Virus record (IMG/VR): IMGVR_UViG_2874933748_000003 | Direction: 5' to 3' (one strand) | Length of the DNA: 22,597 nucleotides | Origin: a virus | Taxonomy: Duplodnaviria > Heunggongvirae > Uroviricota > Caudoviricetes | In this document: in pieces, positions 1 to 17,783 of the stretch | Layout: the number at the start of each line of letters is the position of its first letter | How positions within the stretch are numbered: the first letter of the stretch is position 1 | Notes under the pieces: model-generated | Told to the model about the DNA's origin: nothing | Databases searched by the model: none | Seen by the model: only the letters and a program-made list of their open reading frames with translations | Position numbers and translations under genes: made by a program

Positions 1-200
1 CACAACATCCGAGGACAGCATCGTCCGCCAGCCTACAGAAGTCCGGAAAGCCATGGAAGGTCGTTGGGAGGAGGTACGAATTCTATCATGCAAAAAATAC
101 GTAAAATCGATAACGCCTAGAAATCATTCAATACTCGCACTATCGAAAGTTTACCAGCCAACCGCGGCACGTTCCTGCATACGACGTGCCGCAGCTTCTG

Positions 201-764
201 TTATTCCACGATAAAATTCCTAACCGAATTCAAATCCTTCAGACTATTCAGCTCTTCCTTCAGCTCCCGCTGACGGCGATAAATCTCGTCATTGCGCTCA
301 ACCTGTGCCTGAGCCATTGCTGCCGCCAGTTCTTCCAGTTCCGGCATCGACTGTTTCACCTGCTGATTATCGGCATCACCCCACGTCATCACGTCCCGTA
401 CAATGTCGGATTTCGCAGCCATTACCACCGGATAAAGGCGGCCCAGTGAGTTGGGGCCAGCATTCCAGATACGACCGTTCCATTCAAACGTGAACGGCTT
501 CGCCTCCTGTTCTGTGCGCCATGCTTCAATTCCCTGACGTCTGGCCTCTCTGGCCGCTTCCAGCATTTCTGGTGTCACAGTGAATGGGGCTATCTCACCC
601 CATTTGCCACTTTGCAGTTCCTGCCAGATTCGCTGACCCGTCGGTGCGACATCATCAGCGGTGGCTGTGTAGGGGACTGCCTGGTCCCTGTCGTCAAAAA
701 AAACGTCACAGTCTACTGCGCCACTTTCGGTATAACGGGGATTAATGATTTTTTTAATTTCCAC
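201..764 (-). CDS. Hypothetical prophage protein with C-terminal coiled-coil; possibly a tail fibre assembly/chaperone protein by position only
   Basis: Long ORF 201-824; likely GTG start at 764 preceded by GAGGA 7 nt upstream; lies immediately distal to tail fibre remnants; no family recognised with certainty. Confidence 0.45.
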   Translation of the reverse strand: MEIKKIINPRYTESGAVDCDVFFDDRDQAVPYTATADDVAPTGQRIWQELQSGKWGEIAPFTVTPEMLEAAREARRQGIEAWRTEQEAKPFTFEWNGRIWNAGPNSLGRLYPVVMAAKSDIVRDVMTWGDADNQQVKQSMPELEELAAAMAQAQVERNDEIYRRQRELKEELNSLKDLNSVRNFIVE

Positions 765-902
765 GGTGCATTCCTCACGATGTGCGAATAAAAAGCCCGG
801 GCATTGCGCCAGAGACATGAGCATCCGGCACCCCGGACAGGGCGCTATATGACCCCGGTAATGAATGCTCTGAACATCCCGTAATGAAAAATTGTGGGGA
901 TG

Positions 903-1444
903 CTATATACGTTCCGGTGGGAGTACTGGGCACTGAAATCCCCACCGGTCCCAGTCGTGAGCCTCTGTATGACTGCCCCTGACAAGTCTGATGACTTTAT
1001 CACCGTCAGCTTCTCCACGGTACGCAGCAATAATCAGCCCGCCAATGTCAGGGTCTCCCCATCTGTTGCAGACAGAGCTCGCCACGATTCTGTAAATAAT
1101 ATCTTCTGTGGTTATATTTATTTTCACCCAGCCAGTCAGTCTGGATATGGGCCAGTAGCAGTAGCGGGTGTGATAAATGGGGCCGTTAATGCCGTAAAAA
1201 GTAAGGGATTTGGCTCTGTACCTCGGTTCTGTTGTCTCAGGGCGTGCATCAGTCCACCGGATGCTGAGCACCCCTTCAAACCGTGTGTCGGGTATGATGA
1301 TGTCGTAGGGGCCAGCAACGGAATATTCACCTGGCAGCGCATTCCTTACCCAGGCCAGGAAATCACTCTTAGTGTCAAAACGGATAACATCTTCAGGCAG
1401 AAAAGCACACCCAAAGCCGAATGCGCCGGGTATCGCCAGACGGC
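903..1444 (-). pseudogene. 3-prime remnant of a gene cut by IS600 copy A; possibly the C-terminal part of the side tail fibre gene
   Basis: ORF has no native start and runs upstream into the IS600 terminus at 1445; the opposite strand is also open over the same span, so strand assignment is uncertain. Confidence 0.3.
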
Positions 1445-1487
1445 TGAGGTGTACTGGCAATAGCGGACACTACCATTTGTTCTTTTT

Positions 1488-2302
1488 TTAAGCAGCCATC
1501 TGATGATATTTTTCCCTGAAGGCTGCCGGGGAGATATTCCCCAGACGAGAGTGACGACGCTGACGATTGTAGAAAATCTCAATGTATTCCCGTATTACTG
1601 AGATGGCTTCATCCCGGTTATTAAAACGATAGTGGCTCAGGCTCTCATTTTTCAGCGTTCCCCAGAAGCTTTCCATCGGAGCGTTGTCGTAACAGTTACC
1701 TTTACGCGACATTGATGTTTTCAGACCAGACTGCTCCTGTATGACCCGGTAATCGTATGCGCAGTACTGTGAACCTCGATCAGAGTGGTGGATTAGCCCG
1801 GCAGGTGGGCGCTGGCTCCTGAGCGCCATAAACAGGGCTTTACCTGTCAGCTCTTTTGTCATGCGCTCTCCATGGCGTAGCCGACAATTTCGCACGTATA
1901 AACATCTTTGATGCCAGCGAGGTACAACCATCCCTCCTGTGTGGCAACATACGTCAGGTCCGCCACCCAGACCTGATTTGGTGCTGTAGGAGCGAACGTC
2001 TGGTTCAGCAGATTTGGCGCAACTGGCAGATTGTGGTTCGAGTTCGTAGTCGCTCTGAACTTGCGTTTCTGCTTACAGCGTAGCCTTAGCTCCTTACGAA
2101 GACGTGCCAGTCGGTCACGACCAACGATGATGCCATTCTCTGCCAGCTCCGTCTGGAGCCGCCGGGTTCCATATGTTTCGCGAGTGCGGATATGTGCCAC
2201 CTTAATCTCCAGTTTTAGCCGCTCATCACTTTGTTTTCTGTCTGAGGGTTCATGCTGTACCCAGTTGTAATAACCGCTCTGGATACACCAAATACCTGAC
2301 AC
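1488..2302 (-). pseudogene. IS600 orfB transposase, frameshifted (split into ORFs 1859-2302 and 1488-1931)
   Basis: Translation matches intact OrfB of copy B; a G-run is one base shorter (GCCATGGAGAG versus GCCATGGGAGAG), breaking the frame. Confidence 0.8.
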
Positions 2303-2339
2303 ATCGCTTCAATGGGAAATTGTTGTCGCCATTGTTCGA

Positions 2340-2609
2340 TTAACGCGTATTTTTCAGCGACTCCTGTGCAAAATACGCTGTTGCTTTTTTTAATATATCT
2401 CGCTCAAGGCGAGCTTCATTTAACGCCTTACGCAGTTGCAGAATTTCAGATTCCAGTTCAGCCACCGTGCGGGAACCAGGAGTACCGAGCCCTTTTCTGG
2501 CGGCGGTAACCCATTGTCCTAAAGTGCCTTCAGGAAGAGATAATCGGGAAGCGCCTTCACTGATCGAAAGTTGATTTTCAAGAACCGTTCTGACAGCTTC
2601 AGCTTTGAA
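2340..2609 (-). pseudogene. IS600 orfA, missing its first ~10 codons
   Basis: Matches OrfA from KEFKAEAVRTV onward; canonical 7-A and 5-A tracts present; N-terminus replaced by IS21-family sequence. Confidence 0.75.
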
Positions 2610-3292
2610 CTCTTTAGAGGTATCGATACCGGCTGACCACACAGCGCTTCGGGAACGCTGTAACGATTACCACCAACCTCGATATAGCTGTCCCAGGACA
2701 CATGGCGGATATCGAAGTAACTGGTATCGAAGTCTGTATCCGGTAACGGCTGCAGATGTTCCTGCTCCAGCGCGAAGCGCTGTTCCGGCGTTTCTTTGAA
2801 CTGGCGAAGCTCCCGTTTGTCAGCCACATCGGCTATCCATTGCTCCAGTTGTTGATTGACATGAGTGAAGCTGTCGAACCTGCGGTACCGGACGAAGAAG
2901 TTCTCCTTGAGGTATTTCACCATCCGCTCAACCTTACCTTTTGTTCTGGCCCTGCGTGGACGGCATGCCCGTGGCAGGAAGTTATAGTGGTCAGCCAGCA
3001 ACAGGAATCCGGAGTTGAACACGACTTTCCCGTTGTTATTCTTCAGCACCGCAGCCTTCTGGTTATCAACCAGCACCGTTTTCACACAATCACCGAAGTA
3101 GCGGAAGGCGCGAACCAGTGATTCGTAGGTATGCTCAGCATCCTGTTTTGGTGCGGCGAAGACATGGAAGCTGCGGGAGAACCCCAGCGTATTAACCGCA
3201 AAGTTAACTTTGCACCGTTGCCCGGCAACCTCCACCTCAACTTCGCCCCAGTCATGCTGGAGCTGGTATCCAGGCTGAGTTTCGAAGCGAAC
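2610..3292 (-). pseudogene. istA: IS21-family transposase IstA, central/C-terminal segment
   Basis: Translation RFETQPGYQLQHDWGEVEVEVAGQRCKVNF...GNRYSVPEALCGQPVSI; ORF 2519-3235 in the track runs on into IS600 sequence. Confidence 0.7.
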
Positions 3293-3356
3293 TGAGGTAG
3301 CCTGAGTTTAACGGACACTCCTTCCTGAAATAGAATGGCATCAGAAGGAGCTAATA

Positions 3357-3656
3357 ATGAGCAGAAAAACCCAACGTTACTCTAAAGAGTTCAAAGCCGA
3401 AGCTGTCAGAACGGTTCCTGAAAATCAACTTTCGATCAGTGAAGGCGCTTCCCGATTATCTCTTCCTGAAGGCACTTTAGGACAATGGGTTACCGCCGCC
3501 AGAAAAGGGCTCGGTACTCCTGGTTCCCGCACGGTGGCTGAACTGGAATCTGAAATTCTGCAACTGCGTAAGGCGTTAAATGAAGCTCGCCTTGAGCGAG
3601 ATATATTAAAAAGCAACAGCGTATTTTGCACAGGAGTCGCTGAAAATACGCGTTAA
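3357..3656 (+). CDS. IS600 OrfA (variant C-terminus ...KSNSVFCTGVAENTR)
   Basis: 99-aa ORF with HTH-like N-terminus MSRKTQRYSKEFKAEAVRTV; first A-tract has 5 A and second has 4 A, versus 7 and 5 in copies A and C. Confidence 0.8.
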   Translation: MSRKTQRYSKEFKAEAVRTVPENQLSISEGASRLSLPEGTLGQWVTAARKGLGTPGSRTVAELESEILQLRKALNEARLERDILKSNSVFCTGVAENTR

Positions 3657-3693
3657 TCGAACAATGGCGACAACAATTTCCCATTGAAGCGAT

Positions 3694-4509
3694 GTGTCAG
3701 GTATTTGGTGTATCCGGAGCGGTTATTACAACTGGGTACAGCATGAACCCTCAGACAGAAAACAAAGTGATGAGCGGCTAAAACTGGAGATTAAGGTGGC
3801 ACATATCCGCACTCGCGAAACATATGGAACCCGGCGGCTCCAGACGGAGCTGGCAGAGAATGGCATCATCGTTGGTCGTGACCGACTGGCACGTCTTCGT
3901 AAGGAGCTAAGGCTACGCTGTAAGCAGAAACGCAAGTTCAGAGCGACTACGAACTCGAACCACAATCTGCCAGTTGCGCCAAATCTGCTGAACCAGACGT
4001 TCGCTCCTACAGCACCAAATCAGGTCTGGGTGGCGGACCTGACGTATGTTGCCACACAGGAGGGATGGTTGTACCTCGCTGGCATCAAAGATGTTTATAC
4101 GTGCGAAATTGTCGGCTACGCCATGGGAGAGCGCATGACAAAAGAGCTGACAGGTAAAGCCCTGTTTATGGCGCTCAGGAGCCAGCGCCCACCTGCCGGG
4201 CTAATCCACCACTCTGATCGAGGTTCACAGTACTGCGCATACGATTACCGGGTCATACAGGAGCAGTCTGGTCTGAAAACATCAATGTCGCGTAAAGGTA
4301 ACTGTTACGACAACGCTCCGATGGAAAGCTTCTGGGGAACGCTGAAAAATGAGAGCCTGAGCCACTATCGTTTTAATAACCGGGATGAAGCCATCTCAGT
4401 AATACGGGAATACATTGAGATTTTCTACAATCGTCAGCGTCGTCACTCTCGTCTGGGGAATATCTCCCCGGCAGCCTTCAGGGAAAAATATCATCAGATG
4501 GCTGCTTAA
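3694..4509 (+). CDS. IS600 OrfB transposase (DDE/integrase core), the only unbroken orfB in the window
   Basis: 271-aa ORF; both halves match the split orfB frames of copies A, D and E. Confidence 0.85.
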   Translation: MSGIWCIRSGYYNWVQHEPSDRKQSDERLKLEIKVAHIRTRETYGTRRLQTELAENGIIVGRDRLARLRKELRLRCKQKRKFRATTNSNHNLPVAPNLLNQTFAPTAPNQVWVADLTYVATQEGWLYLAGIKDVYTCEIVGYAMGERMTKELTGKALFMALRSQRPPAGLIHHSDRGSQYCAYDYRVIQEQSGLKTSMSRKGNCYDNAPMESFWGTLKNESLSHYRFNNRDEAISVIREYIEIFYNRQRRHSRLGNISPAAFREKYHQMAA

Positions 4510-4552
4510 AAAAAGAACAAATGGTAGTGTCCGCTATTGCCAGTACACCTCA

Positions 4553-4879
4553 AACTGTTCTTTTTGACGGACGCATTTTACGTTTGGGCTGGATGTAGTA
4601 ACGCAGCATGGAACGTCCGCCCGTATAACCCATTGCCTTAATCTCCGCGAAGATAACCTCGCTATTCCAGACATTCTCTGCCAGGCGCATGTCGATGTAA
4701 TCCATAAACGGTTTCAGCTTAACCATTTTGTGGCGGGTCTTTCTGGCTGGCGGTTCAGGGTATTTGAGGTAGCGTCTGACCGTCCGTTCAGAGCAACCAA
4801 TCTGAGTCGCAATATCGACGATGTACGCGCCCTGCTGGCGCATTTGCTTTATCATGTAAAAGTCCTCTCTGCTCAGCAT
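4553..4879 (-). pseudogene. istA: IS21-family transposase IstA, N-terminal HTH segment
   Basis: Translation MLSREDFYMIKQMRQQGAYIVDIATQIGCSERTVRRYL...KRKMRPSKRTV, then IS600 B. Confidence 0.75.
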
Positions 4880-4980
4880 GTTGATGTCCTTTCTGGTGTG
4901 AGAACCTTAAGGAAACAACATGTTGGGTGGAGCGGACAATCCAAATGGCGAATTACCGTCTTATATCACTGGCGCTGACA

Positions 4981-5292
4981 CTTCATCACCTCCGGACGTA
5001 AATCACCATCCTTTGGTGCATTCAGAAACGCGTTCAGTGTCCCCGGTGCATCAGTCGGTGCCACATCAATATCCCCGACACGGGTTGGCTGCCAGCCGTT
5101 ACAGTGAAGCGCAACCTCGTAATACCCCGGCTCAGCCTCAATCACATAAGCACCGTTATTGTCCGTCACGCAAGTGGCAACAACGTGTGCCACAACGGTC
5201 GGACTGGTTCTTCTGGCCCGCAGTTCAATCGCACAATTTACGACAGGTTTACCCGCCCCATCTTTCAGTACACCTGAAATCTTTACTGCCAT
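4981..5292 (-). pseudogene. stf: Side tail fibre gene, N-terminal ~104 codons only, truncated by the IS21-family insertion
   Basis: MAVKISGVLKDGAGKPV...GTLNAFLNAPKDGDLRPEV resembles the N-terminus of lambda Stf; frame continues into the IS terminus and stops. Confidence 0.75.
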
Positions 5293-5302
5293 ATTCACCC
5301 CA

Positions 5303-5328
5303 CAAAAAGCCCGCCTGAACCAGCGGGC
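5303..5328 (-). terminator. Intrinsic terminator-like hairpin downstream of lom
   Basis: Minus strand reads GCCCGC-TGGTTCAG-GCGGGC followed by TTTTTGTGGGG. Confidence 0.5.
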
Positions 5329-5355
5329 AGTCATAACACTGTGTTACCTGGCTAA

Positions 5356-5955
5356 TCAGAACTTATAACCGACACCCACGATGAAACCGTCAGTGCGCCA
5401 GTCACCACTGCCGGAACCTTCATAAGCAAGGTCAATGGCCACGGATTCGGTCGGGTTAAACTGCACGCCAGCCCCCCACGCCAGAGACGTGTTGCTGTGG
5501 CGACCGCCATCACTTCCGGTCAGCACATCGTGCGTTTTCCCCTTGTTGTCAGTTACGCGGAGATAATCCCCGGAGAAGGTCGACACACGGCTGTAAGCCA
5601 CGCCCGCCATCGCATACGCGCTGAACCATTCATTCACGCGCACAGACGGCCCCGCCATCACGCTGAACCAGCGGTTACGCACGGAATCCTCATGCCAGCG
5701 GGTATCGCTGTAATGCGTTTTTTGCTCATCTTCAGCGTTGGCATAACTGAATGACGTAATCAGCCCCAGCGTGTCCGTAAACTCATAACGGTATTTCACG
5801 TTAATGCCCTTCAGGTCATCGCTGCCTGGCATATCAGTATGGGTCTGAAGATACCCGGCGCTCAGCGTGGACTGATGTTCAGACGCCCATGCAGGCGCAC
5901 CGGATACGGCCAGACAGATGGCTGCGGACAAAATGGCTGCACAAACTTTACGCAT
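5356..5955 (-). CDS. lom: Lom-like outer membrane protein (Ail/Lom family), a lambda moron
   Basis: 199-aa ORF with signal peptide and C-terminal ...GVGYKF beta-barrel ending; positioned between J and stf as in lambda. Confidence 0.9.
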   Translation of the reverse strand: MRKVCAAILSAAICLAVSGAPAWASEHQSTLSAGYLQTHTDMPGSDDLKGINVKYRYEFTDTLGLITSFSYANAEDEQKTHYSDTRWHEDSVRNRWFSVMAGPSVRVNEWFSAYAMAGVAYSRVSTFSGDYLRVTDNKGKTHDVLTGSDGGRHSNTSLAWGAGVQFNPTESVAIDLAYEGSGSGDWRTDGFIVGVGYKF

Positions 5956-5977
5956 AATTACCTCTCGCTTTTCTGCA

Positions 5978-6004
5978 ATAAAAAAGGCACCATTTCTGGT
6001 GCCC
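5978..6004 (-). terminator. Intrinsic terminator between J and lom
   Basis: Minus strand reads GGCACC-AGAAAT-GGTGCC followed by TTTTTTATTG. Confidence 0.6.
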
Positions 6005-6022
6005 GTATCTGGGTTATAAAAT

Positions 6023-9000
6023 TCAGCTAATCGTGATGCCTGCAGTGGCTTTCTTCATCACCACAACCAGCAAATCGCTGATACTTGCTGTGGGATACCA
6101 GCCATTTACCAGCCATGCCGATACAGAAAACTCCAGCGTCATGTGACCGTGACCGGCAGGCATATCAATAACACCCGTATATATCAGCGTATTATCCAGG
6201 GTCGTTCGGTTATAAATTTCAGCACCGTTTTTCTTCACTATCAGGCGGCATGACGAATAAATATTGTTATTCTTCCGCTCATGTTTAGCACCGCGAAACG
6301 CCACCGCGGGAATAACAATTTGCCGATCAAACGGCTGATCGTCATAAACCCTGACGGTAATGGTCCCTGATGGCCACCTCTCCGGTGCCCGGGAGTCCCG
6401 TGGGAAAGGTTTGCCCACTGTTTTAACGAGATCGCCTTCAATCTGGTTCGCGGACAATTTTCCCAGAACCCGACAGTTCTTATTAATCGTGACGTTGTTG
6501 AGCGTCCCGGAGTTCGCGTTCACGTTACCGCTGATATCGGCATTTTTCGCCGTCAGCCGTCCGCCAGGTGTCAGGGAAAATGCCGGAGGATTACCGCCGC
6601 TGGTAATGGTCGGAGCCGTCAGGCATTTCAGGAACACGTCGTTCATGAATATCTGATCGCCCTGACCAACAAACATCGGCTTTGTGTTGCCATTCGCAGG
6701 ATTAATCATCGCAATCCTGTCTGCCGCCAGCAGCACCTGACTCTGCATTCCTGCTGGCGTATTCTCAATACCGGCACCGATACCCGCAATATAAAGGCGT
6801 CCGTCCTTCATCTGTTGCAGCTTCACAGCCCACATGCTGTTCAGGTTATTATTTGTATCAACCTGAACTTTCTGTATCTGCTGGATTGCAGCACTCTGAT
6901 TTTCCAGTTTTTTATTGACGGTTTGCGTGATTTCATTGCTGACATTCGTAATGGACGTCCTGATTTCAGTCAGGTCCGGCGCAAGCTGACCGTTATCAAT
7001 CTGCGTCCACAACTCCTTGCCGAGATGCGTTTTATTGATCAACCCTTTATAAAAATTCAGATAACCTTCTGCATCATCGCTCGCCCGACCGATGGCCTCC
7101 ACAAATGCCGATTTGCCAACGGTGTTCACACTGCGAACGTAAAAATAATAATCATGGCCCGGCCTGATATTGATACTGGCGGCTATCCAGTACAGCGCCG
7201 TGCCAAGATAGCGGGCGCTGGTTTCAACCTGCCTGATATCCGCAATCCGCTTTTCCGAAAACCAGAACTCAAACTGCACCGTCGGGTCATATACAGCCAG
7301 TTTCGGGACCGCCGTTATCTGAAAATACCCCGGTATCAGTTCAATAGTGACAGGCGCTGCCGGTGCCGCAATCCGGAACGATACCGACGCCGGATCGCCC
7401 TGCTGCCCCCGGGCATTTACCGCCCGGACTGTCAGACTGTAATTCCCCAGCGCCAGCTGCCTGAAGCGGTATGTGGTTTCCGTCGTCCTGGCTGTGCTGA
7501 CCAGCCGCTCACTGCCGTCGTCCGCTGCCACGGTCAGGCGAAGCAGGAAGCTCACACCCTTCACCACCTTCGGCGTGTCCCATCGCGCCAGCACCTGATA
7601 TTCCCCGCTGTCTGCGGTGACTTCGGCGGTCAGATGCTGCACCGCTGGCGGCGTGACACCATTCACCGTGCCGCGCCGGTCACCGTCAAAGTGTGCCCCG
7701 TTATCCACGATGGCCTCTTTTTCCGGCACATGCTGCACGGCGGTGATGGCATACGTGCCGTCGTCGTTCTCACGGATACTCACGCAGCGGAACAGACGCT
7801 GGCGCAGCGTCGGCAGCTTCAGCCCCCACACGCTGTATTCTGCAACGCCGTCAGGAACCCGGCTCACTTTCACCTTCACGCCGTCGGTGACGGACTGGAC
7901 CTCCACGCTGACCGGATTGCCACTTCCGTCAACCAGGCTTATCAGCGTGGTACCGGAGGACGGCAGCGTGATTTCACGGTCGAGCGTCAGCGTCCGGGTC
8001 TGGCTGTTCACCGCCAGTACGCGACCACCGGTGCTGATACCGGCATAATCATCATCGCAGATTTCAATGACATCACCCGGTACATGGCGAAGCCCTTCTG
8101 CGCCCACGCTGAAGTCCACGGTCTGCGTTTCCAGCAGTTCCGTTTTAATCAGCCACAGCCCGGCTCGGTGTGCCTGCCCCCGGCTGGTACAGCCAAAGGC
8201 ATCCATCTTCGTGACATTACGACCGTAACGGGCAATGGCCTGCGTATCCTCCACAAGCTCTGTCGCCGTCTCCCAGCCGTTATCTGGGTCAATCCAGTTC
8301 ACCTCAACGGCATTATGGCGGTCCTTCAGGGCGCTGAAGCTGTAGCGGAACGGCGCGCCATCGTCCGGCATCACCACATTACTGCGGTTATAGGTCCACA
8401 CCTTATCCGACGGTCGGTCCTGCACGAACGTCAGCATCTGTCCGTTCCATACCGGCATACAGCGCATCGCCGAGCAGAAATCACTGAGAACATCCCACGC
8501 CTTACGCTGTGTGGTCAGGTAAGAGTTACAGGTGATGCGCGGCTCCGTGCCGCCAAATCCGTCCGTCACTGACTGGTCGCAGTACTGGCCGATGACATAC
8601 AGCGCCCATTTGTCCACATCTGCCGCACCAAGACGTTTCCCCATGCCGTAGCGCGGATGAGTGAGCATGTCCCACAGACACCAGGCCATGTTGTTGCTGT
8701 ATGCTGGCTTAAGCGTTCCGTCCCAGATACCGCTGTATTGCCGCGTCTGCGGGTTATAGTTCGACGGCACCTGCAGAATGCGCCCGCGAAGATGATAATT
8801 GCGACTCACCTGCTGGTTACCGAACTGCTCTGAATCCACCTGCACGCCGACCAGCGCCGTGTTCGGGTAGCACTGTTTCACATCGATGATTTCGGTGTAC
8901 GACGACCAGAGCGTTTTGTTCTGCAGCTGGTCTGTGGTGCTGTCCGGTGTCATCCTGCGCATCCGGATATTAAACGGGCGCGGCGGCAGGTTACCCACCA

Positions 9001-9502
9001 CCACCGAGGCCAGATACTGCGAAGTGGTTTTGCCCTTAATGGTGATGTCTTTTTCCGTCACCCAGCCACCGTTACGCTGTATCTGAACCAGCAGGCGGAC
9101 TTCCGACGGATTCCGGTCACCCTTTGAGGTGGTTTCCACCAGTGCCTGCACACCGAAGGTCAGGCGCAGACGGTCGATGTTTGCCGACGTGATGGTCCGG
9201 GTGATCGGCGTGTCATATTTCACTTCCGTACCCAGCACCGTCTCGGAGCCGGAGGATTCAAAACCCTCCGGCGGTGTCTGCTCCTGCTCACCTGCACGGA
9301 ACACCACCGTAACACCGGAAAAGTTTGTCTTCCCCTCGCTGTCCAGGACCGGCGTACCGTTCAGCAGCACGCTTTTTAATCCATCCACCGGACCGTCAAC
9401 CGGCCCTTCGCTGATGGCATCAATCACACTCAGCAACTGCGTGGATTTCAGGTTGTCCTTCGCTTCGCGCGGGGTATGCCCCTTACTGCTGCCTTTACCC
9501 AT
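6023..9502 (-). CDS. J: Tail tip / host specificity protein J
   Basis: 1159-aa ORF colinear with lambda J from [20 protein letters not shown] onward. Confidence 0.95.
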
Positions 9503-9524
9503 TCCTCACGCTCCATAAACGACA

Positions 9525-9544
9525 AAACCGCCCGCAGGCGGTTT
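9525..9544 (-). other. GC hairpin plus U-tract in the I-J intergenic region, overlapping the J ribosome-binding region
   Basis: Minus strand reads AAACCGCC-TGCG-GGCGGTTTT GTCGTTTATGGAGCGTGAGGA ATG. Confidence 0.4.
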
Positions 9545-9562
9545 CACATAAAACATTTTGCA

Positions 9563-10204
9563 TCAGCGACCAATCACCACAACCTGACCACCATCCCCTT
9601 CGTCTGCCGTGCTGATCTCCTGAGAAACCACACGTGACCCCACGCGCATTTCACCGTACAGAACGGGCAGAACATTGCCCTGGGCAACCATGTTATCCAG
9701 TGACGAGAAATACGTGTTCTGCTTACCGTTATCCGTTGTCTGTGTACGGGGAGTTCTGGCTTTCGGTGCCAGCATCTGTGCAACACCGCCAAGCGTCATA
9801 CTGGCACCGAGAGAAAACAGCAGATTACTCGCCATAATTCCTACCCCCGGCATCCATATAGCAACCGCCATAACAGCCGCCCCCAGCACCGCCTGAAACA
9901 CACCGCCACTTTTAGCTCCCACCAGACGCGGTACTATGTGGATCACTGCACCATTTGCCAGCGGCTCATTAAGACGGGCAGACAATTCGGTTTCACCTGC
10001 ATCACGCCCGGCAATGCGCACCTGATACCAGCCGTCACTCAGTTTCTGACGAAACGCCGGGAGCTGTGTGGCCAGTGCCCGGATGGCTTCAGCCCCCGTT
10101 TTCACACGAAGGTCGATGCGGCGACCAAATCGTTGTAAATCCCCGTAAAGGCAGATGCGCGCCATGCCCGGTGACGCCAGAGGGAGTGTGTGCGTCGCTG
10201 CCAT
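9563..10204 (-). CDS. I: Tail assembly protein I
   Basis: 213-aa ORF starting MAATHTLPLASPGMARICLYGDLQRFGRRIDLRV, as lambda I; overlaps the 3-prime end of K as in lambda. Confidence 0.9.
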   Translation of the reverse strand: MAATHTLPLASPGMARICLYGDLQRFGRRIDLRVKTGAEAIRALATQLPAFRQKLSDGWYQVRIAGRDAGETELSARLNEPLANGAVIHIVPRLVGAKSGGVFQAVLGAAVMAVAIWMPGVGIMASNLLFSLGASMTLGGVAQMLAPKARTPRTQTTDNGKQNTYFSSLDNMVAQGNVLPVLYGEMRVGSRVVSQEISTADEGDGGQVVVIGR

Positions 10205-10845
10205 TTGTCGGTGTACCTCTCTCGTTTGCTCAGTTGTTCAGGAATATGGTGCAGCAGCCCGCCGTCACCGCAGTAAATGGCGGCATGATTCGGCACCGAT
10301 GAACCAAAACAGCACAGCAGCACATCGCCCGGCTGTGCCTCTGTCAGTGCGACACGGTAAAAACCCGTCACCTCCATATTGTCAAGATAGAGATTCTGAC
10401 CGTTACGCCACCAGTCATCCCCGCGATGAAAATCCGGCATCTCAATCCCTGCCAGATGATAAGCATCCCGGAACAGCGTGTAACAGTCCGTCACCCCGTG
10501 CTCAAAGCGCCGCCCGGTGAGATGCGGCACACAGCGGAACTTGTGAATCGCCCCCCGGCAGACCAGCCACCACGGCAAATCACTCTGCACCTGCAGCCGC
10601 CGGTCAGCCTCACTCAGCCAGGGCAGACCACCGGGATGACTGTGGACCAGCGCCACAATCTCACCCTGCATTTGTGCCCGCAGCCAGTCCTCCGGAGCCA
10701 TCCGGAACCGTTCCTCCGGCTCACCGGAGATATTCTCGCTGGGAAGATACCTGTCTCCCTCCGGCGTTCTTACCACGAAGCCACACGACTCCGCTGGCGC
10801 ACATCGCCGGGCGTGCGCCAGAATCGCTGATTCTGTCTGTGTCAT
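10102..10845 (-). CDS. K: Tail assembly protein K (MPN/JAB plus NlpC/P60-like)
   Basis: Internal ATG at 10845 gives MTQTESAILAHARRCAPAESCGFVV...; HSHPGG motif present; the track ORF 10102-11109 is an upstream read-through. An alternative shorter start at MAPEDWL is possible. Confidence 0.85.
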   Translation of the reverse strand: MTQTESAILAHARRCAPAESCGFVVRTPEGDRYLPSENISGEPEERFRMAPEDWLRAQMQGEIVALVHSHPGGLPWLSEADRRLQVQSDLPWWLVCRGAIHKFRCVPHLTGRRFEHGVTDCYTLFRDAYHLAGIEMPDFHRGDDWWRNGQNLYLDNMEVTGFYRVALTEAQPGDVLLCCFGSSVPNHAAIYCGDGGLLHHIPEQLSKRERYTDKWQRRTHSLWRHRAWRASAFTGIYNDLVAASTFV

Positions 10846-10849
10846 GGAT

Positions 10850-11548
10850 TTACTGAGAAAGTTTATTGATGGAAAGGAAACCGCCGAAATTACCGGTATT
10901 GTTGCGCAACTCACACCCGCGCATACACTTGCTGCATTTGTCCTTCCGGATATCCGTCGTTGGTTTGTCGAACTCGTCAGCCACTGCCCTGCCCGTGTAA
11001 CCACACTCATCAGAACGGTAAGTCCACATACAGGTATTCGCCAGCATGATACGCCCCGGGAAAACCGCGCCATCCGTCTCCGTTGGTGTGGCCAGCACAA
11101 AAGAGGCACTGACCGCGCTCAGTTCGCTGCACTGCTCGATGCGCCAGCGGCTGATCACCTCCTGTTCCGGATCGGCGTCGCTGTTTCCGTTGACGAAGTT
11201 CACCGCATCCAGAAAACGGGCGTAAACCTTACGCCTGACCACCGTTCCGCCGACCAGACTCTGCAGGTCTTCCGCCATCCCGGTGACCATTCCGTGCAGG
11301 TTAGAAACCGTCAGTGTCGGACGGGCAGCACTGCCCTTGCCGTTCAGTTCAAATCCCGTCCCCTGAATGGGGTATGCCTGATACTGCCGCCCCTGCCAGG
11401 TAACCGGCTCACCTTTTTCGTTCTGCTCATTACAGAAAAAATAACGTTCACCACCGACCTCTGTCAGATCGATTTCCCAGAGCACCACCTGGGCTGACTG
11501 AGTGAGGCGTGTCGTCTCATGATGTGTTTCCTGTGGAATATCCTGCAT
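10850..11548 (-). CDS. L: Minor tail protein L
   Basis: 232-aa ORF MQDIPQETHHETTRLTQSAQVVLWEIDLTEVGGERYFFCNEQNEKGEPVTWQGRQYQ matches lambda L. Confidence 0.92.
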   Translation of the reverse strand: MQDIPQETHHETTRLTQSAQVVLWEIDLTEVGGERYFFCNEQNEKGEPVTWQGRQYQAYPIQGTGFELNGKGSAARPTLTVSNLHGMVTGMAEDLQSLVGGTVVRRKVYARFLDAVNFVNGNSDADPEQEVISRWRIEQCSELSAVSASFVLATPTETDGAVFPGRIMLANTCMWTYRSDECGYTGRAVADEFDKPTTDIRKDKCSKCMRGCELRNNTGNFGGFLSINKLSQ

Positions 11549-11557
11549 CAGAGCCTC

Positions 11558-11887
11558 CTATGCCACGACCTGTTCAAAATCTGCCGTTATGGTTACCCAC
11601 AACGCCCCCACGCTTGCCGACCATTTACGACAAACCACCCTGATCGGCTTCCAGTCATAAGGTGGCGTCCACTGAAATGCGCGGACGCCACCGTGCCGTT
11701 CCAGAAAGGCTTTTAAAAATGGGTGTTCACCTTTACGAACACGTATCTTCACGCTGTAAGTCGACAACTGGTTATTCAGTCCCGCCGCACGACGCTGTTC
11801 ATAACCATCGCCCAGCTTCACTGTCACCACTTTCGGCTCTGATACCACATTCATATCCGGGCGCACTTTCCAGTGAAACGTCTCCAT
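11558..11887 (-). CDS. M: Minor tail protein M
   Basis: 109-aa ORF METFHWKVRPDMNV...WTPPYDWKPIRV...EFEQVVA resembles lambda M. Confidence 0.9.
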   Translation of the reverse strand: METFHWKVRPDMNVVSEPKVVTVKLGDGYEQRRAAGLNNQLSTYSVKIRVRKGEHPFLKAFLERHGGVRAFQWTPPYDWKPIRVVCRKWSASVGALWVTITADFEQVVA

Positions 11888-12226
11888 TACCGGTATGCTC
11901 CACTTAACCGGCCACCATCACGGGCCTGCTGTTGCATAAAGTCCGCGGCCGCTTTTTTCCCGAGGTCATAAACCACCTTCAGGGCAGCCGGACCTATCTG
12001 CCCGTTCGTGCCATCGTTATTGATCTCAATGTTGTACTGCGGGGCAAACATCACCATGCCTGAACCACCAGTATCCGCCACACCCCCCAGCTTACCATCA
12101 GCACCGCGACGCAGTGGCAGAATGGCTTCAGGTCCCGCTTCCCCCATCACACCCGCGCCTTTTGCAAAAGCAAAAAACGTCGGACGGTTAACCACCGTGC
12201 CACTGTAGCGACTCAAATCAGCAGAC
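11887..12226 (-). pseudogene. H: Tail tape measure protein H, C-terminal ~113 codons only, truncated by IS600 copy C
   Basis: ...FAPQYNIEINNDGTNGQIGPAALKVVYDLGKK...RDGGRLSGAYR matches the C-terminus of lambda H; upstream part of the track ORF (MSVKLRLPQ) is IS600 terminal sequence. Confidence 0.85.
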
Positions 12227-12705
12227 TGAGGTAGCCTGAGTTTAACGGACACTCCTTCCTGAAATAGAATGGCATCAGAAGGAGCTAATAATGAGCAGAA
12301 AAACCCAACGTTACTCTAAAGAGTTCAAAGCCGAAGCTGTCAGAACGGTTCCTGAAAATCAACTTTCGATCAGTGAAGGCGCTTCCCGATTATCTCTTCC
12401 TGAAGGCACTTTAGGACAATGGGTTACCGCCGCCAGAAAAGGGCTCGGTACTCCTGGTTCCCGCACGGTGGCTGAACTGGAATCTGAAATTCTGCAACTG
12501 CGTAAGGCGTTAAATGAAGCTCGCCTTGAGCGAGATATATTAAAAAAAGCAACAGCGTATTTTGCACAGGAGTCGCTGAAAAATACGCGTTAATCGAACA
12601 ATGGCGACAACAATTTCCCATTGAAGCGATGTGTCAGGTATTTGGTGTATCCAGGAGCGGTTATTACAACTGGGTACAGCATGAACCCTCAGACAGAAAA
12701 CAAAG
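12227..12705 (+). mobile_element. IS600 copy C, left ~480 bp only (IRL, orfA, start of orfB)
   Basis: TGAGGTAGCCTGAG at 12227; sequence runs to CAAAGTGA inside orfB, then the left end of copy D begins. Confidence 0.85.
12291..12593 (+). CDS. IS600 OrfA, canonical 100-aa form with the A7 slippery tract
   Basis: Ends ...RDILKKATAYFAQESLKNTR; 7-A and 5-A tracts; reading the minus-one frame from the A7 tract gives the OrfB N-terminus. Confidence 0.85.
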   Translation: MSRKTQRYSKEFKAEAVRTVPENQLSISEGASRLSLPEGTLGQWVTAARKGLGTPGSRTVAELESEILQLRKALNEARLERDILKKATAYFAQESLKNTR

Positions 12706-12769
12706 TGAGGTAGCCTGAGTTTAACGGACACTCCTTCCTGAAATAGAATGGCATCAGAAGGAGCTAATA

Positions 12770-13057
12770 ATGAGCAGAAAAACCCAACGTTACTCTAAAG
12801 AGTTCAAAGCCGAAGCTGTCAGAACGGTTCTTGAAAATCAACTTTCGATCAGTGAAGGCGCTTCCCGATTATCTCTTCCTGAAGGCACTTTAGGACAATG
12901 GGTTACCGCCGCCAGAAAAGGGCTCGGTACTCCTGGTTCCCGCACGGTGGCTGAACTGGAATCTGAAATTCTGCAACTGCGTAAGGCGTTAAATGAAGCT
13001 CGCCTTGAGCGAGATATATTAAAAAAGCAACAGCGTATTTTGCACAGGAGTCGCTGA
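12770..13057 (+). pseudogene. IS600 orfA with altered C-terminus (6-A tract)
   Basis: 95-aa ORF ending ...RDILKKQQRILHRSR; A-tract is one base shorter than in copy C. Confidence 0.7.
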
Positions 13058-13108
13058 AAAATACGCGTTAATCGAACAATGGCGACAACAATTTCCCATT
13101 GAAGCGAT

Positions 13109-13923
13109 GTGTCAGGTATTTGGTGTATCCGGGGCGGTTATTACAACTGGGTACAGCATGAACCCTCAGACAGAAAACAAAGTGATGAGCGGCTAAAACT
13201 GGAGATTAAGGTGGCACATATCCGCACTCGCGAAACATATGGAACCCGGCGGCTCCAGACGGAGCTGGCAGAGAATGGCATCATCGTTGGTCGTGACCGA
13301 CTGGCACGTCTTCGTAAGGAGCTAAGGCTACGCTGTAAGCAGAAACGCAAGTTCAGAGCGACTACGAACTCGAACCACAATCTGCCAGTTGCGCCAAATC
13401 TGCTGAACCAGACGTTCGCTCCTACAGCACCAAATCAGGTCTGGGTGGCGGACCTGACGTATGTTGCCACACAGGAGGGATGGTTGTACCTCGCTGGCAT
13501 CAAAGATGTTTATACGTGCGAAATTGTCGGCTACGCCATGGGAGAGCGCATGACAAAGAGCTGACAGGTAAAGCCCTGTTTATGGCGCTCAGGAGCCAGC
13601 GCCCACCTGCCGGGCTAATCCACCACTCTGATCGAGGTTCACAGTACTGCGCATACGATTACCGGGTCATACAGGAGCAGTCTGGTCTGAAAACATCAAT
13701 GTCGCGTAAAGGTAACTGTTACGACAACGCTCCGATGGAAAGCTTCTGGGGAACGCTGAAAAATGAGAGCCTGAGCCACTATCGTTTTAATAACCGGGAT
13801 GAAGCCATCTCAGTAATACGGGAATACATTGAGATTTTCTACAATCGTCAGCGTCGTCACTCTCGTCTGGGGAATATCTCCCCGGCAGCCTTCAGGGAAA
13901 AATATCATCAGATGGCTGCTTAA
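13109..13923 (+). pseudogene. IS600 orfB, frameshifted (ORFs 13109-13564 and 13480-13923)
   Basis: GACAAAGAGCTGAC has 3 A where the intact copy B has 4. Confidence 0.75.
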
Positions 13924-14016
13924 AAAAAGAACAAATGGTAGTGTCCGCTATTGCCAGTACACCTCACACTCTATCCAACAAACCACCCACAGTTAATCGG
14001 AATAAAAGCAGAGTGC

Positions 14017-14089
14017 TTATGAATGATCGCACGCCCGAAGGTTAGTATTTCTGCACAGCAATTTTGCAAAAAAAGGCGATCATTCATAA
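14017..14089. repeat. Perfect 14-bp inverted repeat TTATGAATGATCGC / GCGATCATTCATAA with a 45-bp spacer
   Basis: Arms at 14017-14030 and 14076-14089, in the 180-bp stub between the tRNA cluster and IS600 copy D. Confidence 0.6.
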
Positions 14090-14148
14090 CTTAAACGTCT
14101 TTCAGTCACTCCGGGATTTCCCATCATCGCAGACTGAAAGACTCTGAC

Positions 14149-14223
<75 letters not shown>

Positions 14224-14226
14224 ATA

Positions 14227-14302
<76 letters not shown>

Positions 14303-14304
14303 GC

Positions 14305-14381
14305 TGGCCCACCACCGAGGACTCGAACCTCGCACCGTCAACTTAGAAGGTTGATGCTCTATCCGGATGAGCTAGTGGTGG
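14305..14381 (-). tRNA. tRNA-Arg (anticodon UCU), with an unusual C1-G72 start to the acceptor stem
   Basis: Reverse complement CCACCACTAGCTCATCCGGATAGAGCATCAACCTTCTAAGTTGACGGTGCGAGGTTCGAGTCCTCGGTGGTGGGCCA; anticodon stem TCAAC/GTTGA, loop CTTCTAA. Confidence 0.8.
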
Positions 14382-14382
14382 T

Positions 14383-14459
14383 TGGTGGCCCTTGCTGGAC
14401 TTGAACCAGCGACCTGGCGATTATGAGTCGCTCGCTCTGACCAACTGAGCTAAAGGGCC
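14383..14459 (-). tRNA. tRNA with anticodon CAU, probably Ile2 (lysidine) type rather than elongator Met
   Basis: Reverse complement GGCCCTTTAGCTCAGTTGGTCAGAGCGAGCGACTCATAATCGCCAGGTCGCTGGTTCAAGTCCAGCAAGGGCCACCA; anticodon arm GCGACTCATAATCGC resembles E. coli ileX-type tRNAs as I recall them. Confidence 0.8.
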
Positions 14460-14546
14460 GGAGGCAGAATAATAACCATATGTCATCACATCTGCAAACT
14501 CATCTGACCACCAGCACGTTTAACGTCCTGTGCCGTTTTTCAGGTA

Positions 14547-14570
14547 TAAAAAAACCCGCATAAAGCGGGC
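14547..14570 (-). terminator. Strong intrinsic terminator between the Q-like gene and the tRNA cluster (candidate tR-prime)
   Basis: Minus strand reads GCCCGC-TTTAT-GCGGG followed by TTTTTTTATACC, about 80 nt downstream of the Q stop codon. Confidence 0.65.
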
Positions 14571-14648
14571 TCTTTCAAATGTCCATGTCTGCTATTCGCC
14601 TCGCGGTACAGCTTTGCGAAGCGTACAAGAATTGAAGCAGTTTTTACG

Positions 14649-15203
14649 TCAAAAAGCAATAACTTTTTTCTCTATACCAAAAGCCATAACCATTGGTTTG
14701 TACAAAATAAATTCTGCCACCTTTAGCCAATGCTCAATGCGTCTTTCACAGGTTCTTAAACTCCATTTCGGGTGTGCATCATTCAGCAGTTCAGCCATTT
14801 TGCGTTTGGTCATCCCCCGCCCCTCATACCGTTGCCGAAGGACGCTAATCAATCCTGGATGCTCTGCCAGCACCTCACTTATGACCCGATCAATACATAA
14901 CGCCTCTGCATCAGTACAATGCGCCAGCCAGCTCTTTTGCTTACCGTTAATCATATCCCGCAAAAAAGCCTCAAGTTCAGACTTGTTCAGACCTGCTTTT
15001 TTCATCCTCCGGAGCGCCTCGTTAATTGCCGTTTTTGTCAGCTTTTTAGAGGTCAACATCAGGTTAAACATATTCCCCGTCTTACCGCCACCAATATACG
15101 ACCAGCGCCCCCACATACGTAGTTTTCCCTGAATCCAGACACTTTCCAGCGTGGTGAGACGAAGGTGTTCTCCGCTTTTTCCTGTATTCGTTGGGTAAAT
15201 CAT
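14649..15203 (-). CDS. Late-gene antiterminator Q-like protein (QuuD/phage-82 type)
   Basis: ATG at 15203 preceded by AAGGAGGG; W-G-x-W motif near the N-terminus (LRMWGRWSY); position just upstream of a terminator and tRNAs; start overlaps the stop of the upstream gene (ATGA). Confidence 0.6.
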   Translation of the reverse strand: MIYPTNTGKSGEHLRLTTLESVWIQGKLRMWGRWSYIGGGKTGNMFNLMLTSKKLTKTAINEALRRMKKAGLNKSELEAFLRDMINGKQKSWLAHCTDAEALCIDRVISEVLAEHPGLISVLRQRYEGRGMTKRKMAELLNDAHPKWSLRTCERRIEHWLKVAEFILYKPMVMAFGIEKKVIAF

Positions 15204-16373: not shown

Positions 16374-16479
16374 GATGCCTCCAGGTTTATAAGTACAAAC
16401 GGTTATATCAACATAGAGACAAAAGGTGATGCTGCCAACTTACTGATTTAGTGTATGATCGTGTTTTTGAGGTGCTCCA

Positions 16480-16755
16480 GTGGCTTCTGTTTCTATCAGC
16501 TGTCCCTCCTGTTCAGCTACTGACGGGGTGGTGCGTAACGGCAAAAGCACTGCCGGACATCAGCGCTATCTCTGCTCTCACTGCCGTAAAACATGGCAAC
16601 TGCAGTTCACTTACACCGCTTCCCAACCCGGTACGCACCAGAAAATCATTGATATGGCCATGAATGGCGTTGGATGCCGGGCAACTGCACGCATTATGGG
16701 CGTTGGCCTCAACACGATTTTACGTCACTTAAAAAACTCAGGCCGCAGTCGGTAA
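16480..16755 (+). CDS. insA: IS1 InsA
   Basis: 91-aa [46 protein letters not shown]. Confidence 0.9.
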
Positions 16756-17177
16756 CCTCGCGCATACAGCCGGGCAGTGACGTCATCGTCTGCGCGGAAA
16801 TGGACGAACAGTGGGGCTATGTCGGGGCTAAATCGCGCCAGCGCTGGCTGTTTTACGCGTATGACAGTCTCCGGAAGACGGTTGTTGCGCACGTATTCGG
16901 TGAACGCACTATGGCGACGCTGGGGCGTCTTATGAGCCTGCTGTCACCCTTTGACGTGGTGATATGGATGACGGATGGCTGGCCGCTGTATGAATCCCGC
17001 CTGAAGGGAAAGCTGCACGTAATCAGCAAGCGATATACGCAGCGAATTGAGCGGCATAACCTGAATCTGAGGCAGCACCTGGCACGGCTGGGACGGAAGT
17101 CGCTGTCGTTCTCAAAATCGGTGGAGCTGCATGACAAAGTCATCGGGCATTATCTGAACATAAAACACTATCAATAA
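16674..17177 (+). CDS. insB: IS1 InsB frame (expressed as the InsAB-prime fusion by frameshifting)
   Basis: 167-aa ORF overlapping insA in the minus-one frame. Confidence 0.9.
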
Positions 17178-17284
17178 GTTGGAGTCATTACCAAAAAAAC
17201 CGCCGAAACGGGTTAAGTGCGGGTGCGTTGAGGATGCCTGACACATCAAAGGTGGCGGGAGATTACTCTCCCGCCTGGTCACTC

Positions 17285-17440
17285 TTACTCTCTAGATTCG
17301 TAGTCTACGAAAACAGCGACCTCCGTCTGGCCGATTCGGATTCGTACCTCGCAGAGGTCTTTCCTCGTTACCAGTGCCGTCACAATGACGGTTAAACAGA
17401 TGACGATCAGGGCGATTAACATCGCCTTTTGCTGCTTCAT
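17285..17440 (-). CDS. hok: Hok/Gef family membrane toxin (HokD/RelF-like)
   Basis: MKQQKAMLIALIVICLTVIVTALVTRKDLCEVRIRIGQTEVAVFVDYESRE; ATG at 17440 preceded by AAGGAG; a GGCGGGA/TCCCGCC stem-loop lies just 3-prime of the stop. Confidence 0.85.
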   Translation of the reverse strand: MKQQKAMLIALIVICLTVIVTALVTRKDLCEVRIRIGQTEVAVFVDYESRE

Positions 17441-17783
17441 AGCCTGCTTCTCCTTGCCTTTCGGCACGTAAGAGGCTAACCTACATTTGTGAGACATAGA
17501 TTGGGCCTCAGATTAATGTTAAGCGTCTTGCAGGACGCGTAATGTTAACTGGGGCTTTTCTCTGTCTGCCTTACAGTGACATACCCGAGGCAGACAGCCT
17601 CAAGCACCCGCAGCAATCTTACCGACACCGATAAGAAAACGCTATTTTTTATTGCCAGCACCATCTATCCAGGCTAGTTTATCTGCGTCAGAACGGCGCA
17701 ATGCGCTCGCCTGAGATACGTTTACTTGCCATGGTAACAACAGGTAACGGCAATTGCTGTTTCTGTTTTGTTTCCTTCAAAAA

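Follow-up and report, generated by a model that had tools for sequence, protein, structure and literature searches.

We analyzed a stretch of 22,597 nucleotides (nt), held in IMG/VR as the virus record IMGVR_UViG_2874933748_000003 and here called the window over its whole length, and focused on a cluster of insertion sequences (IS) at positions 1445 to 4980 that stands between a 5′ part and a 3′ part of side tail fiber (stf) sequence (Table 1). Read on the minus strand, on which all the late genes of the window lie, the order is stf codons 1 to 104, IS21 nt 1 to 425, a complete IS600 (copy B), IS21 nt 426 to 1098, and a second, incomplete IS600 (copy A). Beyond copy A follow the 3′ part of a tail fiber gene (1444 to 775), a DUF4376 gene, and sitDCBA. 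Both the truncated Stf of 108 amino acids (aa) and the DUF4376 protein are deposited under Shigella sonnei names. The exact 108-aa product is FORC11_1838 / ALZ55769.1, and the exact DUF4376 protein is AAZ88441.1 of S. sonnei Ss046, which is found on 190 contigs. In S. sonnei loci, sitDCBA-uspF-ompN lies beyond the DUF4376 gene, with sitD just past the left end of the window, and the intR 3′ part at the right window end (22107 to 22597) is 100% identical to the intR adjoining ttcA in enteroinvasive Escherichia coli (EIEC). The window therefore covers a single locus, a Rac-site prophage that has intR at one end and sit at the other.

Table 1. Features of the window (positions are counted from its first letter)
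Feature	Position	Strand	Content	Basis
DUF4376 gene, tail fiber assembly position	201..824	-		PF14301 match
Tail fiber gene, 3′ part	775..1444	-		nt comparison with EIEC stf genes
IS600 copy A	1445..2619	-	IS600 nt 88-1264	alignment to IS600 reference and copy B
Putative deletion scar	2619..2620		IS21 nt 1098 joined to IS600 nt 88, ...GGTATCGATAC / CTCTAAAGAG...	
IS21 nt 426-1098	2620..3292	-	istA on to ~codon 332/390	1 mismatch in 673 nt
IS600 copy B, complete	3293..4552	+		aligns over nt 1-1264 of E. coli IS600 reference
3-bp target duplication, second copy	4553..4555		AAC on + strand = IS21 nt 426-428 (GTT)	read from sequence
IS21 nt 1-425	4556..4980	-	left terminal repeat (TGTCAGCGCC...) and istA codons 1-108	0 mismatches to IS21 reference
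Truncated side tail fiber open reading frame (ORF), 108 aa	4966..5292	-		ORF list, PF08400, nt comparison
lom	5356-5955	-	directly upstream of stf, with J	ORF list
J, 1159 aa	6023-9502	-		ORF list
IS1, two copies	16425-17192; 19941-20708			
Fourth IS600	20848-22106		cuts intR at 22106; last 491 nt of intR left (22107-22597)	

The truncated stf ORF starts at 5292, where it reads MAVKISG, and consists of stf codons 1 to 104 (5292 to 4981) followed by the IS21-encoded residues CQRQ and a TGA stop. Directly after codon 104 (AAG), the sequence turns into TGTCAGCGCC..., which is the left end of IS21. An earlier note on this DNA had described an IS insertion at this codon, with a few IS-derived codons before a stop, and this is what we found. 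The prophage tail fiber N-terminal domain (PF08400) matches residues 1 to 104 (E=1e-36), and all of the nucleotides concerned (312/312, 5292 to 4981) are identical to those of an intact 470-aa stf of EIEC strain CFSAN029787, located after J and lom in a lambdoid prophage at the mlrA site. The same stf allele is uninterrupted past codon 104 in records of S. boydii and S. flexneri.

The IS21 reference was a complete copy of 2131 bp (L002:2501-4631; istA of 390 aa, istB of 265 aa), flanked by a 4-bp TATA target duplication, and the comparison was made after removing in silico positions 3293 to 4555, that is, copy B plus one AAC. Both pieces (2620 to 3292 and 4556 to 4980) proved to be derived from IS21, with a single mismatch in 1098 nt (G to A at IS21 nt 628, window position 3090; 99.9% DNA identity to the annotated istA part). 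The element had been labeled as a member of the IS21 family, which is right as to type and too broad, since one mismatch in 1098 nt makes it IS21 itself. Its left terminal repeat at 4980 is identical to that of the reference, and its right end is absent, the element ending at nt 1098. No IS21 sequence past this nucleotide was found in the pile-up, where istB (reference nt 1274 to 2071) and the right terminal repeat are absent, and the right junction has been lost with the deletion discussed below. The rejoined IstA is in frame (...RPSKRTVRFETQPGYQ...), contains HTH_23, PF00665 rve (DDE), and PF22483 (Mu-transposase C-terminal) domains, and ends at about residue 332 of 390. With one end, a broken istA, and no istB, the remnant is incapable of transposition and frozen in place.

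IS600 is a 1264-bp element of the IS3 family, with orfA and orfB, a programmed −1 frameshift, and a 3-bp target duplication. Copy B carries both terminal repeats, lies in the orientation opposite to IS21 and stf, and is structurally complete. The two copies of its AAC duplication are at 3290 to 3292 and 4553 to 4555, and in silico excision of copy B together with one AAC restores IS21 exactly, with istA in frame. The earlier description of a complete IS600 inside istA, with a clean AAC duplication and istA resuming in frame on the other side, was thus exact. Copy B measures 1260 nt in the window, whereas the reference and the copy in S. sonnei FORC_011 (CP010829.1), an independent assembly, both have 1264 nt. 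The four missing bases are in A-runs or at a CCAGG site, and all of them are present in FORC_011. The run at the frameshift site is A5 in the window, with a second A missing 36 nt later, while FORC_011 has A7 and an intact frame, a difference that is probably a sequencing error in the window. An independent IS600 is found in the 5′ part of another IS21 on the virulence plasmid pSS_046 of S. sonnei Ss046 (L019, NC_007385.1 142748-145087), in the same relative orientation as copy B and ca. 270 nt further upstream in IS21, and IS21 seems to have been hit repeatedly by IS600.

Copy A has the orientation of IS21 and stf. It is identical to copy B at 1169 of the 1176 aligned positions, and its identity to IS600 over nt 88 to 1264 is 99.5%. 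It has kept the right terminal repeat, at 1445, and lacks nt 1 to 87, which comprise the left terminal repeat, the start of orfA, and codons 1 to 7. The earlier note had rightly seen that IS21 is truncated, without istB, and joined to the interior of a second IS600 lying opposite to copy B. The breakpoint that it gave, 2609/2610, had to be moved by 10 nt, to 2619/2620, when both elements were aligned to their references and copy A was aligned to copy B. The joint is blunt and has no shared bases (the next base in the IS21 reference is G and the preceding base in the IS600 reference is A), and a search at 2619/2620 for microhomology or pseudo-ends found none. Because both breakpoints lie inside the elements, we infer that the joint is the scar of a non-homologous deletion, neither a nested insertion nor an adjacent deletion made by a transposase. 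The latter was ruled out, as the breakpoints are internal to both elements rather than at IS ends.

The nested insertion deserves separate mention, given that the structure had been described as a three-layer nest in which copy A was the third layer, a true insertion of IS600 into IS21. IS600 does enter IS21, as seen in copy B and in the independent case on the virulence plasmid. However, the left terminal repeat and the first 87 nt of copy A are absent, its right end abuts stf sequence instead of IS21, it lacks a target duplication, and no IS21 sequence continues beyond it. Alignment to the IS600 and IS21 references refuted this reading, to which we give practically no credence; copy A does not lie inside IS21 but is joined to it by the deletion scar. 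Being single-ended, copy A is unable to transpose and frozen in place. An in-frame GTG in the IS21 part provides it with a substitute start (ORF 2340 to 2642, reading MWSAGIDT-SKEFKAEAV...), from which gene callers have called an OrfAB of 385 aa in other S. sonnei genomes.

We then considered the arrangement in other genomes. The 40-mers across all five junctions are present, and identical, in FORC_011, which aligns to window positions 1 to 13494 at 99.89%. Twenty-four complete-genome contigs, found through a look-up of the DUF4376 protein, were read, and 19 of them share the arrangement, five (L020, L021, L023, L025, and L027) because they align to the window straight through the IS cluster and the other 14 as grouped by common neighboring genes. 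For the elements of the window themselves, identities of 99 to 100% across hundreds to thousands of bases exclude chance. Draft S. sonnei contigs break off at the IS21 edge or just inside it, and partial products of 99 to 104 aa are found on at least 1000 S. sonnei contigs. Elsewhere, no match spanning the joint of IS21 (nt 1098) with IS600 (nt 88) or the joints of IS21 with copy B was found in 5,426 complete E. coli genomes, and among 72,556 plasmids, the best matches end at the scar and none of those listed spans it or the IS21/copy B joints.

These data also bear on the possibility that the junctions, especially 2619/2620, were produced by mis-assembly through collapsed or mis-joined IS repeats. 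The region is rich in repeats, and the window does show errors of a sequencing type (seven single-base deletions relative to FORC_011). Nevertheless, FORC_011 has the same 40-mers at all five junctions, the alignment to five further complete chromosomes passes straight through the region, and many draft contigs end at the stf/IS21 joint, as the edge of a real repeat predicts. The presence of the five junctions in FORC_011 and of the arrangement in 19 of the 24 contigs therefore speaks against an assembly artifact, the possibility raised in the earlier note, and mis-assembly, refuted by these independent assemblies, is almost certainly wrong. The IS pile-up is real, specific to S. sonnei among the records compared, and essentially fixed.

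The sequencing-type errors do affect how the coding frames are to be read. Over positions 1 to 12300, the window lacks seven single bases relative to FORC_011 (at 975, 1869, 2278, 3607 [two], 3642, and 3715), always in short runs of the same base or at CCAGG/CCTGG (Dcm) sites. Both copies A and B show 1-nt deletions, two of them in the A7 slippery run of copy B, that are absent in FORC_011, and the IS600 copies at 12706 to 13966 and 20848 to 22106 show the same kind of base loss. The deletion at ca. 975 breaks the frame of the stf 3′ part in the window only and is likewise absent from FORC_011. The pattern points to long-read consensus errors as the probable source of these losses. The frameshifts that they create in the window, in orfA/orfB of IS600 and at the stf 3′ end, are thus probably false, the product of sequencing errors, and are not to be taken as biology.

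Taken together, the junctions suggest a series of four steps. IS21 entered stf, downstream of J and lom, behind codon 104, and IS600 copy B entered istA between IS21 nt 425 and 429, with duplication of 3 bp; both steps can be read directly from their junctions. The insertion of copy B is necessarily later than that of IS21. IS600 copy A entered an stf 3′ region further downstream, a step documented for its right end only. Finally, a blunt non-homologous deletion would have removed IS21 nt 1099 to 2131 and the leftmost 87 nt of copy A, together with all the sequence in between. This deletion would be later than the insertions of IS21 and copy A because the scar joins IS21 nt 1098 to IS600 nt 88. 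The earlier note had counted at least three sequential events; their sequential nature stands, and the minimum rises to four, namely, three insertions and one non-homologous deletion.

Several points weigh against this sequence of events. Copy A has lost its left end and IS21 its right end, together with any target duplications there, so that the insertion sites on these sides have to be deduced. Blunt joints without microhomology are less usual for spontaneous deletions. Furthermore, the two stf halves may come from one gene or from two, and the single-nucleotide polymorphisms (SNPs) next to the copy A junction are blurred by apparently homogenized stf 3′ ends of S. sonnei paralogues. If both halves belonged to one gene, which is slightly favored, the deletion was of ca. 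1.4 to 1.6 kb; if they came from two genes of a double or hybrid prophage, it may have removed tens of kilobases of prophage DNA.

It had been taken for granted that everything lies inside one side tail fiber gene. This holds for the 5′ half, which is in stf, but the 3′ half may belong to a different stf gene. The stf 3′ part begins at a position corresponding to nt 599 of the 422-aa sit-linked Stf and to nt 746 of the 470-aa lambdoid Stf. In EIEC CFSAN029787, the counterpart of J-lom-stf 5′ (97 to 99.7% identity with the window) belongs to a lambdoid prophage that ends with ipaH and occupies the mlrA/btsS site, whereas the stf 3′ end, DUF4376, and sitABCD belong to a prophage of the baseplate type at ttcA/intR, at a distance of ca. 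640 kb. A baseplate-type prophage also adjoins sit in two other complete chromosomes of the Shigella group and in one draft contig. The sitABCD iron/manganese transporter is cargo at the prophage end (window 1 to 200; L003:15300-18749), just outside the DUF4376 gene; it has stayed intact while the prophage decays, and in the relatives examined it is attached to a prophage of the baseplate type and not to a lambdoid one.

The one-gene version, to which we give slightly better than an even chance, holds that the Rac-site prophage was already mosaic before the IS arrived, with a lambdoid J-lom-stf-DUF4376 region directly upstream of sit. IS21 and copy A would then have inserted into the same stf 290 to 430 bp apart, and the scar would be the local deletion of ca. 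1.4 to 1.6 kb. The window is colinear with the lambdoid map (int, Q, tRNAs, a gap, H′, M, L, K, I, J, lom, stf′, ′stf, tfa), and sequence of the EIEC lambdoid type is found on both sides of the IS600 at 12227 to 13966, in the tape-measure remnant and at 13967 to 14260. The site of IS21 (stf nt 312) is upstream of that of copy A (nt 599 or 746), the order needed if the deletion took place within a single gene. No S. sonnei-labeled match (at least 96%) to the mlrA-type DUF4376 was found among the 120 best hits, and the closest S. sonnei DUF4376 paralogue looked up (95%) is at the smpB site, with no leftover partner locus seen. On the other hand, the prophage adjoining sit in EIEC CFSAN029787, in the two chromosomes, and in the draft contig is of the baseplate type, with its own stf of 421 to 422 aa, and J-lom-intact stf-DUF4376-sit occurs in none of the genomes examined. 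One more recombination, through stf/tfa homology, is also needed than if two genes had been involved.

The stretch at 13967 to 14900, with the phage tRNA genes (tRNA-Gly, Thr, Arg, and Met at 14149 to 14459), is itself a mosaic, with a crossover inside the tRNA cluster. Positions 13967 to 14260, including tRNA-Gly, match the lambdoid prophage at mlrA in EIEC with 100% identity and the Rac-site prophage with 94%; from 14261 onward, it is the Rac-site prophage that is matched at 100%. The switch to the Rac-site type at ca. 14260 thus falls within a tRNA cluster common to both prophage types rather than at an IS edge, which counts for the one-gene version; as far as this comparison goes, it would favor a single hybrid phage.

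Alternatively, the stf halves would come from different tail fiber genes. A lambdoid phage and a sit-carrying baseplate-type prophage would have recombined at the tRNA cluster to give a double prophage, IS21 would have entered the lambdoid stf and copy A the resident one, and the scar would be a large deletion; or else a later IS600-by-IS600 exchange would have joined the halves. All the non-sonnei relatives examined hold the stf halves in different prophages (ca. 640 kb apart in EIEC), a single event would account alike for the truncated IS copies and for the joining, and exchanges at the same IS600 copies are observed among S. sonnei strains (L022, L024, and L026; see below). Against this, no reciprocal joint of IS600 nt 87 with IS21 nt 1099 and no leftover product was found, although S. 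sonnei was absent from the collection scanned, where a control search for the joint that does exist was negative as well. On this version, the two insertion sites would be in a compatible order by coincidence, and the only junction-adjacent SNP (1409) is of the lambdoid type, a weak argument given gene conversion. A protein search for a leftover stf middle in S. sonnei found none fused to an IS21 right end among the matches listed, which were other stf paralogues, in a baseplate-type prophage and in a Mu-like prophage at smpB. We consider an origin from two genes a serious possibility whose chances fall somewhat short of even.

The stf 3′ end (826 to 1444) is practically identical to the stf paralogue at the smpB site of S. 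sonnei (L029:2777-4045), and the sit-linked and smpB-linked 3′ ends share variants unseen in EIEC or in other Shigella-group loci. This suggests gene conversion between prophage tail fiber genes within the S. sonnei genome. SNP patterns of the stf 3′ part were rejected as a paralogue test on the grounds that the sit-linked and smpB-linked 3′ ends of S. sonnei are practically identical.

Five of the 24 complete S. sonnei chromosomes differ at the locus, and three of these variants illustrate what has happened there since. In one (L024, CP146298.2), window positions 4557 to 12702, with the tail genes, were lost by exchange between IS600 copies B and C; in another (L022, CP045524.1), a deletion is combined with an inversion at the locus. 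In the third (L026, CP151391.1), copy A has regained its full length and has the xis/int of another prophage near yebY as its upstream neighbor, a structure that would result from an IS600-by-IS600 crossover.

A more far-reaching proposal combines these elements: the IS cluster would be the joint at which a lambdoid late region was grafted onto the sit prophage, the scar would have resolved a double prophage, the IS600 copies would act as a hub, and copy A would provide transposase in trans. As a joint claim, we regard this as tentative and rather doubtful. If it were true, three or four IS600 copies would keep acting as a recombination hub at the locus, and the immobile copy A, with its full-length transposase ORF and substitute start, might be predicted to supply IS600 transposase in trans.

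The decay of the prophage extends well beyond the tail fiber. The IS600 sequence of 12227 to 13966 marks a gap of ca. 17.4 kb, as measured on the EIEC lambdoid prophage, that has cost the prophage its terminase, lysis, head, and tail-shaft genes as well as most of its tape-measure gene. Position 12226 joins a tape-measure remnant (the last ca. 114 codons) to IS600, and the sequence resumes at 13967 in the tRNA cluster. In this stretch, a partial IS600 (nt 1 to 479; 12227 to 12705) directly abuts a full one (12706 to 13966), and FORC_011 differs at 12227 to 13966 by ca. 178 nt within IS600. The prophage was thus already non-viable, whatever became of its tail fiber. That the IS have permanently inactivated the tail fiber, as had been claimed, is therefore true yet minor, in a prophage already without ca. 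17 kb of lysis, head, and tail genes. The IS cluster is a scar without function, in a prophage already stripped of lysis, head, and most tail genes. Further to the right, a small ORF on the minus strand (17285 to 17497) ends in ...MKQQKAMLIALIVICLTVIVTALVTRKDLCEVRIRIGQTEVAVFVDYESRE and lies in a stretch matching the part of the Rac-site prophage of EIEC in which a Hok/Gef family gene is found; a Hok/Gef gene has been called at the corresponding place in S. sonnei locus L024, and the ORF is probably a prophage toxin gene.

Taken as a whole, we hold with high confidence the following explanation. The window is a decayed prophage at the ttcA/intR (Rac) site of S. sonnei, with sitABCD at its outer end. 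Positions 1445 to 4980 are a pile-up of transposable elements that was assembled by ordinary steps and fixed early in S. sonnei, and in some strains the IS600 copies have since provided the homology for additional deletions and inversions. The locus is a precise, species-wide marker of S. sonnei built of five fixed junctions. It also exemplifies the erosion of a sit-carrying prophage through IS insertions, an illegitimate deletion, and later exchanges between IS600 copies, with the sit iron/manganese transporter left untouched. Its importance beyond such bookkeeping is slight. A literature search, which was not exhaustive, found no individual description of this IS21/IS600 locus.

Compared with known systems, the upstream part of the locus resembles the lambda-type J-lom-stf-tfa arrangement, with the same order of J, lom, and stf, a PF08400 domain, and the DUF4376 gene in the tfa position, and differs in that stf is split and its middle, at least 290 to 430 nt, is gone. 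It shares with the Rac-site prophage that carries sitABCD the same intR at the other end and sitDCBA-uspF-ompN beyond, but the Rac-site sit prophage of the relatives examined has a baseplate-type tail, whereas the tail here is of the lambda type. With IS21 (istA and istB, 2131 bp), the remnant has in common the left repeat and the helix-turn-helix and DDE (rve) part of IstA. Only the left 52% of the element is present, the last ca. 58 IstA codons, istB, and the right repeat being gone and istA being split by IS600. Copy B shares with IS600 both terminal repeats, orfA, orfB, and the 3-bp duplication, while copy A differs by its missing left repeat and native orfA start. Decay of this type is ordinary for Shigella genomes and known in kind, and the present locus is a textbook instance of it. 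Shigella chromosomes carry 229 to 348 IS copies (PMC7373316), and the 12 IS types listed for S. sonnei 53G include both IS21 and IS600 (Hawkey et al. 2020, PMC7373316). Seferbekova et al. 2021 (PMC8072062) describe IS as causing pseudogenes and acting as substrates of rearrangement in Shigella. Relative to the IS-driven decay set out in PMC7373316 and PMC8072062, we see no difference in kind, and L022, L024, and L026 illustrate the rearrangements.

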